In this document: piece after piece, positions 31,211-44,549 of the stretch
Position numbering within the stretch: position 1 is the first letter of the stretch
Layout: every line of letters begins with the position of its first letter
DNA from: a virus
Lineage: Duplodnaviria; Caudoviricetes
Length of the DNA: 64,000 nucleotides
IMG/VR virus record: IMGVR_UViG_3300035562_000082
Location: 32,001 to 96,000 of that record
Direction: 5' to 3' (one strand)
Notes under the pieces: model-generated
What the model saw: the letters and a program-made list of their open reading frames with translations, nothing else
Told to the model about the DNA's origin: nothing
Database searches by the model: none
Made by a program: the position numbers and the translations under genes

Positions 31211-33841
31211 GTGTTCAAAAGCCATGGATTATTACACTTGAGGGTGATAGTGTGGTTATTCGTCGTCGGGGTAAGCCTGGGCGTATTCGTATTGACGCTG
31301 AGGACAAACATTTTGTTGTCGGTGTTTATGAAGATCTTGACTTCGGTGAAAAAGAACCGGAATTGAATACGTCGATAACGATTGAGTACAGTGAACTTGA
31401 GGTTTTGAGAGATGAAGACCACAAGTCCACAGGCGCGTAAACTACTGACGGCGTTGAACAGCACGTCCGTGGGCGCGGAGGTCAAGTTGGATCTACCGAG
31501 TCTGATACCGGCGTTGCCGTCCAAGGTGCAGGCGATGTTGACCGAGGCCGAGCCCGGCAAGAACTACAGGCTGTCGCTTTGTTGGTGCGGGGTGTTGTTG
31601 ACCGACGTGTGGGTGGAGGTCAAGGACGGCTAGTTGAAAGCGGAGGTCATGTGAAAACCCCGGATACACTGCTATGGGCAGTGGCGGATACACTGCAATT
31701 GAAATTGCATCTGCTGGGCAAGGGCTTTCAGGCGACGGCGATGCGCGACGTACAGGTTGGGTTGTGGAAGCTCCAGCTTGACCTCGTGGCGCGATCGGAC
31801 GTACTGGAAGAGCAGTGTGCGGCGTTTCTGGTGCATGTGCTGGGCTGCCTGTGGATGTATGTGGTGGCGACCGAGGGTAAGATCGTGGTCACGGCCTTTG
31901 ATGGCCCGGCAGTGGGTCTGCGGGTGAAAACCTTGGGGGGCTATGGTATGGGTTCAGTGCCCGGGACGTTGAAGAAGATCGGGCCGGGGATCAAGCAGAA
32001 GTTCGAGTTCAATGGCGAGACCTGGGATACGCTATGACCGCGCTTAAAAGACTGGAGATCATTGAACATCGTAGCAAGGACTTGCAGCGACAGCTTGATG
32101 ATATGTATACGCAGTTGAAGAATAAAAAACTTGATCCCGCGTTTTTAGCGTGTTTATTTCATGGCACGTCAGGTCATTTGTCTGCGATTAACGGGCACGC
32201 GAGCTTGTTGAAAGAGGAGTTGGAGAAGGTCCTTGGGAGGAGCGATGGCTGAAACTATGCCTTGTATGTGCGGGCATTCGATCGAAGAACATCATGGGGG
32301 TGACCCACAATATCCAGGTTCAACCGCGTGCACCGAGTGTGAGTGCATTGCGTATGAGGCCGACGACCCCGATACGGTGGTGGAGACATGAAGGTCTTTA
32401 CCTGCAAGTCCACGGGGGTGATCCTTGGGTACTATGCAGTGGTGGCGGCTCACGATCATCAGCAGGCCCTGACGTTGGTGAACGAACGGATGGAAGCCCT
32501 GGGTTTACGTCCGGCAAAAGCGGATGAGCTTCAGGAATTTGAGACCAATGTTCCGAATGTGGAGACGCTGTTCGATGGAGACTACTGAAGATTGGAAACT
32601 GGAGTACATGTTGCTTCGGGAAGTTCCTGGGATTGGTCTGTGCGGGATCAAGCCCATGATGTTCACCTACAGTTTGGTGGTGCGTCTGGATGAAATGGGG
32701 TATCAGTGGCGGTATTGTTATGAGTATGCGGCTGATGCAGTGGCGGCGATTAAACAGTGGGATGGTAAGGATCATCCGCCCGGACCGTGGATCAAGCTCA
32801 AGGGCCTGGGTATGCCCGAGCTTCTTGGACCAGGAGCAGGTGATGGCCACGTTTAATGACCGGCGGACGATCGATCGACTGATGGCCAACGACGGGTGGC
32901 TGCCTGAGTGCGGGGATCGTACGGCGCCGGATAATCCACCGGTAATCAGGATCGTTGAGTACATGAACATGGAGGGCCGGCTTGCGTGGGGTGTGGTGTT
33001 CGACGGCGAGCGAGATCCCTACAGGTACGAGCGACCATCGGAGTACATTTACGAACCCAGGGTGATCTGGGTGCGATCTGGAAGGAGTAGATTATGATCA
33101 CCAGAGCCGAGCATCTAGCGTGGTGTAAGCAACGTGCACTTGCGTACGTGGAGGCCGGGCAACCTCAAGAGGGCTTGACCTCGATGTTCAGTGACCTGGA
33201 GAAGCATCCGGAGACCCAGGGACATCCGGGTTCACGCATTGGCCTGGGGTTGATGATGATCGGAGATCTTGCGACGGCCGATAAGGCACGGCGGTTCATC
33301 GAGGGCTTCAACTGATGCTTGAACTTGGCCAAACGCTGCGGATGGACCCTAGTGTGTGTCCGGTGTGCGGGCGAGGAATCACGGCCGCAACGTGTGCTAC
33401 CGGTCAGCATGCGCCAAAGCCAGAGGACTTGACCGTGTGCTTTGGCTGTTTGATGGTCTTGAAGTACGATCAACAGCTACGGCCGGTCAAGTTGCCGGAC
33501 GAGGAGCTATGGGCGCTGCCGTTGGATATGCTGGAGGACATTCAAGCACTCCAGCATAAACTGGAGCAGGTTAAGCGCCGGGAGAACAGAACATGAAGAC
33601 CCGGGACATGACGGTCGAAGAACTTCATCAGTGGTATCCGGGGTTGTCGAATCCGGATAGTCCGGTGTTGGCCAACGGTATAGAGCGTGATCGGGAGTTC
33701 ATGCTTAGGCGTACGCGTAAGACCTGCCCACCGTGTATCAAGTCCGAGAACTGTGCGGTTGATCAAGTGTGTTTGCAACATGAGTTTCAGGCCAAGGGCG
33801 GGCTGCCGGGGATCAACAGCAGGGAATGCCAAGGGTAGATC

Positions 33842-37082: not shown

Positions 37083-37556
37083 TTAATGCTGGCAGGTCGC
37101 GGGTAGGAACGGATAGGCCGCAACGATAGCACCAGCGGCCGTACCATTGGCAGCCGTGGACGTACCGCAGGTCCAGGTCACCGTACCATCGGCATTGCCA
37201 ACGCCGAAGATCCCCAGGAACTTGCCGTCAAGGGTCGAGCCCGTAGCGCCGACGGTCGTTACTACGCCAGCCACCGTGGCACTGGCTTGGTTGTAGGAAA
37301 TGGCGGTCATGTACTTGACGTTGGACGGCAGGGTGGTGCTGACCGGGCTGGCGGTAGTCGCCGGGAACGCCCCTTGCGATTGATAGGCTTCCGTCAGCGC
37401 GATCTTCGCGGCATCCAGGAACGTGATTTCCTCGGTGACCTTTGAGCGCGTCAGGTAGTTTTGATACTGCGGCAGGGCGATGGCCGCCAGGATGCCGATG
37501 ATGGCAACCACGATCATCAACTCGATGAGCGTGAAGCCCGTTTGTTTACGTTGCAT
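37083..37556 (-). CDS. pilA: Type IVa major pilin
   Basis: MQRKQTG|[27 protein letters not shown] class III signal; C-terminal disulfide loop WTC...PATC; RBS GAGGG. Confidence 0.95.
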
Positions 37557-37601
37557 AGTCTGTCCCTCAGGTTTCCGGCTTATTGCCGGCAGGAAGATAG
37601 T

Positions 37602-37618
37602 AAGCAATGACCGTGCCA
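37602..37618 (-). promoter_or_regulatory. sigma54 (-24/-12) promoter of pilA
   Basis: Minus strand reads TGGCAC-GGTCA-TTGCT, about 45 nt upstream of the pilin ATG. Confidence 0.85.
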
Positions 37619-40022: not shown

Positions 40023-43000
40023 GTGGATCCCCGAGTACTGCTAAAGCTTGAAGCCGCGTTGGTTCGGCGGTTACGCGCAAGCTGGAAGCGCGAGAGCACT
40101 CCTGTTTACCTGAAGATCCAACAGGCGATCACCGATTGTGATTGGCCCACGGCCGTCCAGCAGGTGTACAAACTGGACATGACGCACGTGGGGGATGAGA
40201 ACCGCGAGTGGATCCGGCATATGCTGCTGTCATTCGCGGTTTTTGGTGCGAAGATGGCGAACAAGCGCGGACCGTTGTTCTTGAACGCCGGTACGTATGA
40301 TCAACGACTCGATCATATTACGGACATCATTTGTCAGTACTTTGAACATCGAGCAACGGCCTTGGTACAAGCCCGGGCATTGCAATCAATTGCCGAGGCC
40401 GAACGCGAGGCCAAGACCCAGGTGGCGTACAAGTTCGAGGAGGACGAAGCCCGGGATGTCCATGGACGCTGGACAGCCGGGGGTCCGTCGTTGTGGCACA
40501 GTGGGCAGTTTGAAGCCCAGATATCTAAGGTCGGTAAGACCTACGACAACAAGGCCGATATGGCGTTGTTGAGTAAACGTGGAGCGACGCTTGAGAAGAG
40601 GTCGTCTAAAATTCAACAGGATTTTGCTTATCAAGACGATAACCCAGAGGGGTTTGATCAAGAACTAGAGAAACTGAATGACCAGTGGACGGCGGTAGTG
40701 CTTGCTCAAGAAGGGCTCAAGCGTTTCCACGATAAACCAACGGAAACGATGTTCATTGCCCGGGACGGGGACCGACTGTCTGGGTTGGCCTATGGGTTTG
40801 TGCGGGGCGATCAAATGGAACTTGATCGTCTGGCGTCGTTTCAACGGGGGGCTGGGAGTAAGCTGTTGGTGGAGTTCGAACAGAATGCGCGCGATCGTGG
40901 ACTACAGTCGGTCGTATTGCACTCAACGCATTATGCTGAGGGGTTTTACACCGCACACGGTTACACGTCCAAGGGCAAGAACAATGAATATGGGATTGTG
41001 GAGTTCGAGAAAGATCTGACGAAGACCAAGACCGTGAAGAAGATTGATCCAGAAGAAATTGCGTGCTTGGCAGTGCCGGCAGACTGGAAGCCCAGGGCTA
41101 TCAAGGGCGATCTGCCAGGGCATGAGTTCCATGGTAATCAATGGACTCAAGCAGCCGGGCAGTTCAAGTACGATCCAGCGGCCAAAGCTTGGACAGGGGG
41201 AACGGATGTTCAGCATCAGAGATTACGAGATCTACGAGTCCCCCCTGCATGGGCCAACGTCCGCCTTAACCCAGACGCTGACGCTGCTCTTCAAGCACTC
41301 GGAGTTGATGTTAAAGGCCGTACGCAGTACCTGTATAGTGCGGCCCACAGTGAACAAGCGGCGGCCGAAAAGTTTCAGCGGCTGAAGGACTTCAATGCCG
41401 TAGCACCGAAGGCCATCAAGCAGGCGTTGGCCGATATGCAGAACAAACAACTGGCGTCGGAGAAGCGAGATGCGGCGGCCGTGGTGTACCTGATTGGCAA
41501 GACCGGACTGCGTGTGGGATCGGACGCGGAGACCGGGGGTGCGGTCAAGGCCCATGGGGCAACGACGTTGTTGGGCCAGCACGTGACGTTGCTGGGCGAT
41601 AAACTGTCGTTGGATTTCGTGGGTAAGAAGGGCGTGCAGATTCACAAGGAGTTGACGGACCCAAAGCTCGCACAGTATTTGAAGGGCAAGGTCAAGTCCA
41701 TGGGCGATCGGTTGTTCAACACCACCGACAGTGCTGTACGAACGTATCTCAAGGACATCACGGGCGATCAGTTCAAGGTCAAGGACTTCCGGACATGGCA
41801 CGGCACGTCCACGGCACTCCAGGAGTTGAAGGACCGACCGGTGCCGAAGACCGCCACGGAGTTCAAACGTGTTGTGTCGGAGGTTGCCAAGGTCGTGGCC
41901 AAGCACTTGGGTAACACTCCCGCTGTGGCGAAGAGCGCGTACATCGATCCGGCGGTTTGGGGTGGTTGGGGCGGGAAGTTCGCGGTGACCAAGCAGGAGG
42001 TTGATCAACCGTTGATAGACGAGTTCCTGGACACCCATCAGTACGATCAAACTGGAAACTGGCGGCTTTTGCCTGATGTTGAGGAAGAGGATCTGGAAAG
42101 CGCAATTAAAGACGACATGGGCAGTGCTGATCTTCAAACGGCGGGCGCACTCAATCCCATGCAGGCCCAAGCTCCGGTACAGAGCCGACGATCGTTGAGA
42201 AGACGCAGGCGACGCAAGGGCGAGACCAGGACGCTGTACGTCCATCGACCGGTGATCAACGGTCAGACGATTGTTGATTGGGCGAAGACCCAGGGATTTG
42301 AAACGTGTTTACCACTGGAGAAAATGCATGTCACAATCGCCTACAGCAAGCAGCCGGTGGACTGGAACGCCATGGGTGATGCTGACACCCGTAATCTGCA
42401 CGTGGATGATCAGGACGACCGCGAGGTCAAACCCTTGGGTAGCGATGGAGCGGTGGTGCTCAAGTTCGTGTCCAAGAAACTCCACGATCGGTGGAAACAC
42501 CTGTGTGGCGCGGGAGCATCTTGGGATTACGAGGGTTACCAGCCACACGTTACCATCACTTGGGAAGCCCCGAAAGGACTTGAGTTATCAACGGTTGAGC
42601 CGTACACAGGACCGATTGACCTCGGCCCAGAACAGTTTGAAGAACTTGATGAAGATTGGGGGGACAAGGTAGTTGAGAAGGCCGATGAGACCGGTCGGTA
42701 TGTGACGCCGTTTACGTCGTTCGCCGATGAAGGTGAAGGACTGGTGCAGATGGTCAGCAGTTTGAACAGCAGTCGCATGGCCACCTGGGGGTTCACGGCC
42801 GAGGCCGATCAACTGGGGGTTGGACGTTATCGGTTGACGGCCGTCCTCGATGGGCGTACTAGTGAGTTCTGTCGGATAATCGACGGCCGGGTGTTTGACG
42901 TTGACGACGCACGACGCAAGGTCAATGAGGTACTGGCGGTTCAGGACCCGTCGGATCTTGAGCAGGTGCAGCCATGGCCTGATCAATCGAAGGCCGCGAT

Positions 43001-44549
43001 TGCTGAGTACGAAGGTATGTCCGACGATGATCTTGTAGCCCTGGGATTGAACATTCCGCCATTTCACCCAAACGCAGTTTTTGCTGGGACTACGTTTGTT
43101 AGTTATGGGGCGTTAGATGAAATGATCGGGGCTGACTATCATGGTCCCGCGATTTTGATTAAAACCTCTGAGGGTGCAGAGTTTACCATCGGCCCTAATC
43201 ACCCGATACTTACACAGTGTGGAATGCGGTTGGCTAATTGCTTGTGTGAAGGCGATTACTTGGTCTACGACACTAGGGTGGAAATGTTTGATTTTATTTC
43301 CAGTGGCCGATCCAATTCTAATTTCAAGAACGTTCCATTCGTTGAGGATGCTTTTGAGTCGTTGTTGCCGATGGGCAAATTGACGCGGGTTGCCGCTACC
43401 ACTGACGATTTCCATGGCGACGGGGTATTCTGTGAGGGTGAAATCCAGATTGTAATTCCTGCAAACCGTTTGTTGTTTAAATTTGATTCCTTGGGCGTTG
43501 AGCATTTCCGAGAGTATGGTTTCATTAAACCCAATGCCTCTTTGGCTAATGTATCTACTGATGGCTCTGGCTACCCTGACATCGAGCCCATCTATTTGTC
43601 CGCGCCGGGCAGCGTGGGCAGCAGATTGGCGGGTGTGTTTAGACTCCATCGAGTAGTGAGTGTAACGCGAACACAATATAAAGGTAAAGCATTTGATGCT
43701 ACAACTGCCTCTGGTGTTTACAACTGTGACGGATTTGTAGTAAGTAACTGTCGTACGATGTGCGAAATGGTGGACGCCGATGAGGGTGAGCCCGAGGAGT
43801 TGGCGGTGACCGGCCCGTTGGACAAACAGCAGTCAACGGCCGAGGATTTTGCGGCCGTGGGGGTAGAGGTCACGGACGATCAGCTTGCGTATTGGAATGA
43901 CGCTGTGGGGTTAGATCCTCAAAAGGCGTTGGAAACGATGTTCGCGGGTGATGTAGAGGCGTTGACCGCCAAGCTTGATGAAGGACAGGATCCAATTGAT
44001 GTAGACGAGGGTGGGAGTATCAGCTTTGTGGCCGCAGGCGATCTCGGAGACGGTACGTACGATCTTCAGAGTGTGTTCGATCCGTTTACCGGCACGTTGT
44101 ATTTGACCGACGCGGATTTCACGACCACCGATCCTCAGGTGGTGGCGGAGTTCATCAGCCGGGTGTTCGACGGCATGATCGACACCGGGATGTCCGCTGG
44201 GGCAACGGCCTTGGCCATTGACGTGGGGGATTCCGCGTATGAGTACGCGAAGATGGGTTTCAGACCCGATCCTGGTGATTGGGAGGACATACGGGGTAAC
44301 GCCATGGACGCCCTGCAAAGCGGGGATCTCCAAGAGGTGTTCGACAGCCTGGACGATGATCAAAAGAATCAGGTGTTGAATACCTTGAACAACCCGGACG
44401 AACATGCGGTGCAGGATCTGGCGAACTTGCCGATTGAATTTCAAGGGCAGTCCGTGGGAGAATTGATATTGCAATCGGTGTCCGGGCAGTTCACGTTGGA
44501 TCTGACGGACGATGATGCGGTTGAGCAGGCAAAGAGCTATTTTGAGTGA
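40023..44549 (+). CDS. MuF/SPP1 gp7-like head protein fused to GNAT, topoisomerase IB and Acb1-like 2H phosphoesterase; intein-containing
   Basis: GNAT QRGAGSKLL...FYTAHGY (~40740-41010); TopIB VPPAW, GRTQYLY, GLRVG, GKKG, KDFRT, LGNTPAVAKSAYIDP (~41160-41970); 2H motifs HVTI..HVTI (~42230-42645); MuF DGRTSEFC...PPFHPN/CRT. Confidence 0.88.
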   Translation: MDPRVLLKLEAALVRRLRASWKRESTPVYLKIQQAITDCDWPTAVQQVYKLDMTHVGDENREWIRHMLLSFAVFGAKMANKRGPLFLNAGTYDQRLDHITDIICQYFEHRATALVQARALQSIAEAEREAKTQVAYKFEEDEARDVHGRWTAGGPSLWHSGQFEAQISKVGKTYDNKADMALLSKRGATLEKRSSKIQQDFAYQDDNPEGFDQELEKLNDQWTAVVLAQEGLKRFHDKPTETMFIARDGDRLSGLAYGFVRGDQMELDRLASFQRGAGSKLLVEFEQNARDRGLQSVVLHSTHYAEGFYTAHGYTSKGKNNEYGIVEFEKDLTKTKTVKKIDPEEIACLAVPADWKPRAIKGDLPGHEFHGNQWTQAAGQFKYDPAAKAWTGGTDVQHQRLRDLRVPPAWANVRLNPDADAALQALGVDVKGRTQYLYSAAHSEQAAAEKFQRLKDFNAVAPKAIKQALADMQNKQLASEKRDAAAVVYLIGKTGLRVGSDAETGGAVKAHGATTLLGQHVTLLGDKLSLDFVGKKGVQIHKELTDPKLAQYLKGKVKSMGDRLFNTTDSAVRTYLKDITGDQFKVKDFRTWHGTSTALQELKDRPVPKTATEFKRVVSEVAKVVAKHLGNTPAVAKSAYIDPAVWGGWGGKFAVTKQEVDQPLIDEFLDTHQYDQTGNWRLLPDVEEEDLESAIKDDMGSADLQTAGALNPMQAQAPVQSRRSLRRRRRRKGETRTLYVHRPVINGQTIVDWAKTQGFETCLPLEKMHVTIAYSKQPVDWNAMGDADTRNLHVDDQDDREVKPLGSDGAVVLKFVSKKLHDRWKHLCGAGASWDYEGYQPHVTITWEAPKGLELSTVEPYTGPIDLGPEQFEELDEDWGDKVVEKADETGRYVTPFTSFADEGEGLVQMVSSLNSSRMATWGFTAEADQLGVGRYRLTAVLDGRTSEFCRIIDGRVFDVDDARRKVNEVLAVQDPSDLEQVQPWPDQSKAAIAEYEGMSDDDLVALGLNIPPFHPNAVFAGTTFVSYGALDEMIGADYHGPAILIKTSEGAEFTIGPNHPILTQCGMRLANCLCEGDYLVYDTRVEMFDFISSGRSNSNFKNVPFVEDAFESLLPMGKLTRVAATTDDFHGDGVFCEGEIQIVIPANRLLFKFDSLGVEHFREYGFIKPNASLANVSTDGSGYPDIEPIYLSAPGSVGSRLAGVFRLHRVVSVTRTQYKGKAFDATTASGVYNCDGFVVSNCRTMCEMVDADEGEPEELAVTGPLDKQQSTAEDFAAVGVEVTDDQLAYWNDAVGLDPQKALETMFAGDVEALTAKLDEGQDPIDVDEGGSISFVAAGDLGDGTYDLQSVFDPFTGTLYLTDADFTTTDPQVVAEFISRVFDGMIDTGMSAGATALAIDVGDSAYEYAKMGFRPDPGDWEDIRGNAMDALQSGDLQEVFDSLDDDQKNQVLNTLNNPDEHAVQDLANLPIEFQGQSVGELILQSVSGQFTLDLTDDDAVEQAKSYFE
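43074..43748 (+). mobile_element. Intein (225 aa) inserted in the MuF HPN|CR motif; begins with Ala
   Basis: HPN-AVFAGT..., block B IGPNHPILT, block F AFDATT, block G VVSN-C; lower GC. Confidence 0.85.
43113..43649 (-). CDS. DUF559/Vsr-like PD-(D/E)xK endonuclease encoded antisense inside the intein
   Basis: NETILSEMLNAQGIKFKQQ...YNLDF...VAMEIVSG...RLKSILNEWNVLEI. Confidence 0.7.
   Translation of the reverse strand: MESKHTRQSAAHAARRGQIDGLDVRVARAISRYISQRGIGFNETILSEMLNAQGIKFKQQTVCRNYNLDFTLTEYPVAMEIVSGSGNPRQFAHRQQRLKSILNEWNVLEIRIGSATGNKIKHFHPSVVDQVIAFTQAISQPHSTLCKYRVIRADGKLCTLRGFNQNRGTMIVSPDHFI

Follow-up and report, generated by a model that had tools for sequence, protein, structure and literature searches.

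Inteins that carry an endonuclease gene on their complementary strand have been described in a survey of actinobacteriophages (Gosselin, Arsenault & Gogarten, bioRxiv 10.1101/2025.01.02.630785). There, anti-sense VSR-like endonucleases matched PDB entry 3R3P in HHpred, minor capsid inteins occurred exclusively with non-canonical endonucleases, and the 225-aa minor-capsid intein of Rhodococcus phage REQ3 was listed as the smallest class-3 intein. Here, we analyze 64,000 nucleotides of a caudoviricete virus record (IMG/VR IMGVR_UViG_3300035562_000082, positions 32,001 to 96,000; hereafter the window), in which a MuF gene is interrupted by a 225-aa intein whose minus strand holds a 178-aa open reading frame (ORF). 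We find that this is very probably a mobile MuF-family intein with its homing-endonuclease gene on the complementary strand. As in the surveyed phages, the host is a MuF or minor capsid protein, the intein is contiguous, and the antisense ORF encodes a protein with a VSR-like fold. The REQ3 intein is the closest named relative, being of the same length and 38% identical in both frames. The layout has therefore been published already, and the window is a further example that adds detail. The survey covered actinobacteriophages only, whereas we show that the clade extends far beyond them. We also show that the clade of inteins beginning with Ala (Ala1) lacks the class-3 residues, which contradicts the label given to REQ3. 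We provide a quantitative test of how selection switches strands within the short form of the element, find that a short nuclease without helix-turn-helix (HTH) modules is maintained by selection, and identify a free-standing relative accompanied by a recoded duplicate of the target. A literature search for MupF with an intein found nothing.

Other described systems share parts of this arrangement. As cited in the same preprint, antisense LAGLIDADG ORFs have been reported in inteins (Gorbalenya 1998; Gogarten et al. 2002). By that account, these too place the endonuclease on the strand opposite the intein, but they belong to another nuclease family and have other hosts, namely Synechocystis dnaX and a Chloroflexus SpoVR-like protein. 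In the fractured genes of Dassa et al. 2009 (PMC2677866), the halves of a split intein flank a free-standing gene for a Vsr-like endonuclease. There too, the insertion site combines an intein with a Vsr-like endonuclease gene that is translated separately, but the gene splits the intein, whereas the intein of the window is unsplit and shares its DNA with the gene on the opposite strand. The prototype EDxHD (Vsr-like) homing endonuclease, I-Bth0305I (PDB 3R3P; Taylor et al. 2011, PMC3239194), has its gene in the sense orientation within a group I intron. Its N-terminus bears a NUMOD/HTH region, which the window nuclease lacks.

The features of the locus are as follows. Conservation on the plus strand refers to 111 Ala1 inteins (clusters at 50% identity; 62 short, at most 235 aa, and 49 long). 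On the minus strand it refers to alignment A1 (10 phage antisense proteins) and alignment A3 (31 sequences, short forms only).

40023-44549, plus strand: polyvalent MuF protein, 1508 aa, from its ORF and Pfam domains
43056-43073, plus strand: N-extein motif PPFHPN, continuous with CRTMC in the intein-less homologue P0155
43074-43748, plus strand: intein, 225 aa, from Ala1 to Ser-Asn225, from its HINT fold, PHROG match and junctions
43191-43193, plus strand: Gly at intein position 40 of block B (B:7), Gly in 93% of the 111 inteins
43200-43202, plus strand: block B His43 (GPNHP), His43 and Pro44 in 100%
43413-43421, plus strand: sense motif His114-Gly115-Asp116, constrained on both strands
43695-43697, plus strand: block F Asp208 (F:4), Asp in 100%, Cys in class-3 inteins
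43746-43751, plus strand: C-terminal splice junction Asn225/Cys+1, Asn in 100%
43113-43649, minus strand: antisense ORF, 178 aa, Vsr/DUF559-like nuclease without HTH, ATG at 43649 and TAA at 43113-43115
43359-43523, minus strand: nuclease core with Glu43 (43521-43523), Asp69 (43443-43445), Glu80 (43410-43412) and Arg97 (43359-43361), all invariant in A1 and A3

The insert comprises 675 nt, or 225 codons, beginning with GCA (Ala) and ending with AGT AAC (Ser-Asn). It is followed by TGT-CGT-ACG-ATG (CRTM), in which the TGT at 43749 encodes the nucleophile Cys+1. P0155, which is the closest homologue of the exteins (56% identity across residues 700-1017), has the motif as an unbroken PPFHPNCRTMC, and PP(F/Y)HP(N/H/R)CRT is unbroken in about 20 further extein homologues. 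The G+C content of the insert (0.45-0.47) is below that of its flanks (0.54-0.59), which counts in favor of a foreign origin. An AlphaFold2 model of the insert with six flanking residues per side, built from a 22-sequence alignment (pLDDT, or predicted local distance difference test, 76), matches structures 1am2, 2lqm and 4oz6 in Foldseek, all at probability 1.0. The structures matched at that probability include Mxe GyrA, Pho RadA, Mtu RecA, Ssp DnaB and the hedgehog HINT domain, and all top matches are inteins or hedgehog HINT domains. PHROG 15127 also matches the insert (1.8e-18). The original prediction, which was made from the letters alone, had read this as an intein of 225 aa that begins with Ala rather than Cys or Ser and splits the MuF motif PPFHPN-CR. 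All of its coordinates hold, and the in-frame position within a motif that is unbroken in P0155, together with the HINT fold, establishes the insert as an intein. Its remark that the sense interior lacks LAGLIDADG and HNH motifs is borne out by a Pfam search, in which the sense translation matched neither family.

This intein belongs to a large family. A HMMER scan of 1.84 billion representative sequences recovered 2823 clusters at E ≤ 1e-3, 66 of them at E ≤ 1e-30, and the junctions HPN/AV(L/F)xG(S/T)xF and VV(S/K/H)N/C are common to nearly all of the best 150 matches. A locus search with the intein of the window alone confirmed 0 relatives, and the Ala1 alignment (A2) did yield loci; the ten-phage antisense alignment offered no stretch of sufficient conservation for such a search. 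Beyond actinophages, the intein is found in phages of Pseudomonas, Vibrio, Escherichia, Aggregatibacter, Cronobacter and Edwardsiella. Ala1, His43, Pro44, Asp208 and Asn225 are conserved in all 111 Ala1 inteins. Since Ala1 is present in 111/111, it is a stable character of the clade and not a mutation of decay.

The antisense ORF lies in frame -1, such that its codons are exact complements of the intein codons. From stop to stop this frame is open for 239 codons (43116-43832), and an alternative start (TTG 43676) would extend the product to 187 aa. The 178-aa ORF and the opening of both strands over more than 500 nt are therefore as originally described. We find that the open antisense frame exceeds chance across the family, not in the window alone. 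Among ten divergent phages (the window, REQ3, ES2, Vibrio H2, PvVp04, MSW-3, a Pseudomonas phage, Aaphi23, Vivi2 and KMB36), frame -1 is open for 208-319 codons in 10/10, and the other four non-coding frames contain 6-40 stops each. It is also open for 193-307 codons in 33/33 IMG/VR loci of the Ala1 clade (28 distinct). Expected antisense stops were derived from the use of TTA, CTA and TCA in the extein of each gene. By this measure, 26.8 stops are expected and 2 seen in Vibrio phage H2, 22.5 and 2 in PvVp04, 18.5 and 1 in Aaphi23, and 11.7 and 2 in KMB36. For the ten phages combined, the summed log10 P of the deficit is -30.9. Short forms of low G+C content are open as well (12.7 expected and 3 seen in L015; 13.4 expected and 2 seen in L028).

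The relatives of this ORF are nearly invisible to annotation. In tblastn searches of 50,697 phage records, the antisense translation matched 59 records and the sense translation 36. The antisense matches are longer, and all of them lie antisense inside MuF or minor-head genes. A profile search of 5.8 billion proteins recovered only 11 called nuclease proteins, compared with the 2823 intein clusters, so gene callers systematically miss the nuclease gene. Consequently, an unannotated nuclease gene is present in hundreds of phage genomes. A word-based search of the same proteins with the antisense ORF found only three called genes, of about 173 aa. One of these (P0001; 53% identical, 3.6e-41) likewise lies antisense within a MuF intein, at the end of its contig. 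The genome of the window has no further copy of the nuclease.

Start signals are recognizable in the relatives. In short forms the antisense ATG lies 6-11 codons upstream of a conserved AAHAARRG motif and is preceded by GGAG or GGAGG. Relatives with such a sequence before the ATG are L014, L016, L019, L020, L038 and L042. The ATG of the window sits at the same place. In long forms that begin with Cys (Cys1), the antisense ATG complements the His codon of the block F motif GHVYDL, with a GGAG-type Shine-Dalgarno sequence 8-10 nt upstream.

Selection is partitioned between the two strands. We aligned the codons of 17 short-form loci, the window among them, and compared codon pairs one base apart as observed over expected frequencies. 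The first ratio below is for changes silent in the sense frame that alter the antisense protein, and the second for changes that alter the sense protein and are silent in antisense.

Intein residues 1-66 (N block): mean pairwise identity 0.54 in sense and 0.32 in antisense; ratios 2.92 and 0.49
Intein residues 67-185 (centre): mean pairwise identity 0.34 in sense and 0.48 in antisense; ratios 0.91 and 2.54
Intein residues 186-225 (C block): mean pairwise identity 0.45 in sense and 0.23 in antisense; ratios 3.23 and 0.43

Thus, selection acts on the sense frame in the splicing blocks at both ends and on the antisense frame in the centre. The ten-phage alignment shows the same regional pattern, although it was built from the sense translation. 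Individual residues conform to this division. Antisense Glu80 is kept in 29/29 sequences while the sense residue there alternates between Phe and Leu (TTC/CTC), and antisense Asp69 is kept in 29/29 while the sense residue alternates between Val and Ile. One central sense motif is also fixed: His114 and Asp116 are both kept in 29/29, with synonymous codon variation only. The bases of His114-Gly115-Asp116 read (V/I)-A-(V/M) in antisense and adjoin the catalytic Glu, so the invariance of the sense His and Asp in this position marks the motif as constrained on both strands. The comparison of both frames across homologues, which the original prediction had proposed as a check, therefore comes out in its favor. 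We also considered whether the short form represents a decaying endonuclease, and at the level of the family this is ruled out by antisense-specific purifying selection together with a free-standing counterpart.

The product of the antisense ORF resembles Vsr-type nucleases. Its AlphaFold2 model, built from a 31-sequence alignment, reaches a pLDDT of 86.2 and a predicted template modeling score of 0.79. Its best Foldseek match is Vsr (1cw0, 1.1e-3), joined by 1vsr and I-Bth0305I (3r3p), all at probability 1.0. The A1 profile matches I-Bth0305I (3R3P, 7.6e-5) and the DUF559-type structure 3HRL (6e-4), in addition to HTH domains, while the A3 profile reaches 3HRL only (0.0049) and does not reach 3R3P. 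In Pfam, DUF559 (PF04480) scores 15.2-15.3 bits (E about 0.02) on the ORF of the window, short of the gathering threshold of 20.6. Among the ten relatives, 7 match HTH_7, 5 match MTES_1575 and 2 match DUF559 (down to 2e-4). Of the DUF559/Vsr-like pattern originally noticed, the Vsr fold and the relation to 3R3P and 3HRL thus stand, while the Pfam assignment of the window protein to DUF559 stays below threshold.

The nuclease core is conserved. In window numbering, E43, G54, Q60, Y66, N67, D69, A78, E80 and R97 are invariant in A1. In A3, A11, A14, G17, R32, E43, Q60, D69, F70, E80, R97 and L102 are invariant, and the window retains every one of them; the antisense ORF is conserved, as the original prediction required. 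Glu43 and Asp69 align with the EDxHD motif, and the invariant Glu80 is followed by near-invariant G84, G86 and N87 and by invariant R97. The window model superposes on I-Bth0305I with a template modeling score of 0.57-0.59 on the target, and the profile match pairs the helix Glu, the NxDF-strand Asp and the AxE-strand Glu. We regard the ORF as a real Vsr/DUF559-like nuclease gene, supported by profile matches, fold, antisense-specific selection in the centre and a free-standing homologue, whose product is predicted to cleave DNA.

The window and REQ3 both represent a short form of the element, with an intein of about 218-232 aa, an antisense protein of about 170-180 aa and no HTH modules. In long forms, such modules vary in number and place. 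Cys1 long forms have 1-3 at the N-terminus of the nuclease, and some Ala1 long forms (L034, L035, L040, L042, L043, L045, L046 and L048) have an extra HTH-like segment at its C-terminus. This suggests repeated gain or loss of DNA-binding modules. Long-form relatives resemble I-Bth0305I in having HTH DNA-binding modules.

A free-standing homologue of the nuclease is located at the same MuF site. This protein (P0003; 172 aa, 33% identical, E = 1.1e-13) is encoded in Logan contig SRR32696682_4130 (L012:1108-1709), directly after a MuF gene of the same orientation, and four stops close the complement of the nuclease gene. The MuF gene ends in ...AHPS-CTRAASPIVDAT, and the nuclease gene ends in ...RPN-CTRAASPIVAER. 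The contig thus has two copies of the MuF tail from the intein insertion point onward (CTRAASPIV). The two copies have 7/9 shared codons recoded synonymously and are identical at 26/45 nt. A recoded copy of the target within an invading cassette is as expected of a homing endonuclease that cuts at HPN/C. The arrangement resembles a homing cassette that targets this site but has no intein.

Together, these results suggest how the element might function. The 225 residues are translated within the polyvalent MuF protein and adopt a HINT fold; they would then cut themselves out, so that PPFHPN and CRTM are joined. In the first step, Cys+1 would attack the upstream peptide bond directly, in the class-2 (KlbA-like) manner, after which Asn225 would cyclize. 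The minus strand would give rise to the 178-aa Vsr-fold nuclease with its core of Glu43, Asp69 and Glu80. During co-infection, this nuclease would cut intein-less MuF alleles at or near the sequence coding for HPN/C, and repair after the cut would copy the whole element into the intein-less allele. The two genes divide the constraint between them, with the splicing blocks at the ends selected in the sense frame and the centre in the antisense frame, and sense codons that read backwards as stops (TTA, CTA and TCA) are avoided. A composite selfish element, with splicing on the sense strand and mobility on the antisense strand, was the inference of the original prediction, and strand-specific selection and the free-standing homologue make it the best explanation, in which splicing, cleavage, homing and antisense expression are the inferred parts. 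If so, both strands of about 540 bases encode a functional protein, which makes the element a clean natural example of dual coding in antisense.

Several observations weigh against this explanation, and some of them would fit another. The ATG at 43649 has no Shine-Dalgarno sequence (the upstream 16 nt are TTACACTCACTACTCG), in contrast to the GGAG or GGAGG of its relatives. A simple scan for sigma-70-like promoters on both strands of 42800-44300 found none, although such a scan is too crude to weigh much. The nuclease of the window lacks the HTH/NUMOD DNA-binding domain of its long-form relatives and of I-Bth0305I. In the window alone, 2.8 antisense stops are expected and 1 is seen, a difference short of significance (P = 0.24). 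Protein-level identity to the nearest DNA relatives is only about 47-58%, which gives no sign of very recent transfer. All of these points could be accommodated if the family were truly dual-coding but the antisense gene of this copy were a silent relic, the intein still splicing and being inherited only vertically. We consider this unlikely, as the window retains all residues invariant in 31 relatives, and as purifying selection specific to the antisense frame acts on the short form, which also has a free-standing relative of equal length. Furthermore, of the 56 ORFs called crudely in this phage, only about 17 are preceded by a Shine-Dalgarno sequence, so that the absence of one at 43649 is weak evidence, and the G+C content of the insert is well under that of the host gene. 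Two further points count against details of the preferred explanation. In the alignments, neither the His nor the second Asp of EDxHD could be assigned to a conserved residue (His213 and Asp222 of I-Bth0305I have no conserved counterpart in this family), and the class-2 splicing route is argued solely from a lack of alternatives.

That the antisense ORF is not a gene, and is only a mirror image of sense conservation and codon bias in the intein, has a negligible chance of being correct. Frame -1 shares its second codon positions with the sense frame, which leads one to expect some mirrored similarity, and few antisense stops are expected in relatives of high G+C content (REQ3 and the Pseudomonas and Gordonia phages). 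However, relatives of low G+C content show 1-3 stops, all at the ends, where 12-27 are expected; central changes that alter the sense but not the antisense protein exceed expectation 2.5-fold; and the antisense model is surer than the sense model (pLDDT 86 versus 76) and adopts a Vsr nuclease fold. The free-standing P0003 is homologous even though its own complement is closed by stops. This explanation is already refuted. It is also very improbable that the nuclease is expressed for a purpose other than homing, as a defence, exclusion or DNA-processing enzyme that shelters in an undeletable region. Such a role would suit a host that is itself a conflict-related polyvalent protein with Acb1, and a nuclease without a separate DNA-binding domain. 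But outside MuF inteins at a single insertion site the nuclease is hardly ever found (2823 intein clusters, 11 called nucleases), the intein is patchy among close exteins, and the free-standing copy at the same HPN/C site, with its recoded target duplicate, is a typical mark of a homing endonuclease. We therefore retain the mobile intein with an antisense homing-endonuclease gene as the preferred explanation.

To our knowledge, class-2 inteins have so far been known mainly from archaeal KlbA. Class-3 inteins reportedly carry a triplet of Trp at B:12, Cys at F:4 and Thr at G:5. At these positions the window has Ile, Asp (100% of the 111 Ala1 inteins) and Val (99%), respectively, so the class-3 signature is absent, as originally stated from the Asp of block F. 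A class-1 intein has Cys, Ser or Thr at position 1, which is Ala in the window and in 111/111 relatives. The remaining sequence features are those of the class-2 (KlbA) type, namely no nucleophile at position 1, no class-3 triplet and Cys+1. The residues that an intein requires, block B His43, C-terminal Asn225 and the +1 nucleophile Cys, are present.

We also evaluated class-3-like routes through an internal Cys. Only two such residues are frequent in the Ala1 clade, C120 (77%) and C217 (41%), and neither is present in 20/111. The window and REQ3 both have a Cys near 217/218, but across the clade no more than 41% of members share it, and 18% have neither this Cys nor C120. We therefore rejected such a route. 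Given Ala1 and the lack of a universal internal Cys, direct attack by Cys+1 is the most likely route. The class-2 or KlbA-like label thus fits best by sequence, as a best guess by exclusion.

The Mja KlbA intein (class 2; PDB 2JMZ) likewise has Ala1, Cys+1 and no class-3 triplet. It nonetheless shows no specific sequence relationship to the window, and 2jmz ranks only 35 in the fold search (E = 0.14). Unlike KlbA, the intein of the window has a penultimate Ser and Gly at B:7. The usual residue at B:7 is Thr, which is present in all 8 Cys1 relatives. The change from Thr to Gly at B:7 covaries with the loss of the N-terminal nucleophile.

Ala1 MuF inteins are without the penultimate His. Given this absence, His114-Gly115-Asp116 may act in splicing. 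A broader proposition joins three claims. The Ala1 MuF inteins, which form at least 111 clusters at 50% identity and share Ala1, F:4 Asp, B:7 Gly and the lack of an obligate internal Cys, might be by far the largest natural clade of class-2 type; the antisense nuclease of 170-180 aa might be a homing enzyme of minimal size that acts site-specifically without a separate DNA-binding domain; and the sense His-Gly-Asp motif might replace the missing penultimate His in splicing. That all three are correct is doubtful, and we offer the combination tentatively. The Ala1 clade provides many natural sequences in which to study splicing without an N-terminal nucleophile, and the short nuclease could be a compact homing enzyme.

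The host protein has, in order, GNAT, topoisomerase IB, Acb1 anti-CBASS phosphodiesterase and MuF domains, followed by a C-terminal region. Pfam matches are strong for Acb1 (1.9e-38), Topoisom_I (6e-26), Top1B_N_bact (3.2e-9) and Acetyltransf_10 (5e-6). Phage_Mu_F scores 7e-4, below threshold, because the MuF domain is split. GNAT, topoisomerase IB and Acb1 are thus joined to MuF in this host, and homologues exchange modules (e.g., PF00293, PF03496 and PF13563, from precomputed Pfam accessions). In the closest relative (L011:5500-5537, minus strand), the frame of MuF and intein contains a TAA roughly 7 codons away from the end of the contig, in an assembly of 3x coverage; this is probably an assembly error or a frameshift. 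The virus record as a whole is 117,594 bp, from an uncultured phage, and is rated complete by CheckV. Just upstream of its head module, a 174-aa ORF lies on the minus strand (37083-37607) amid plus-strand genes.

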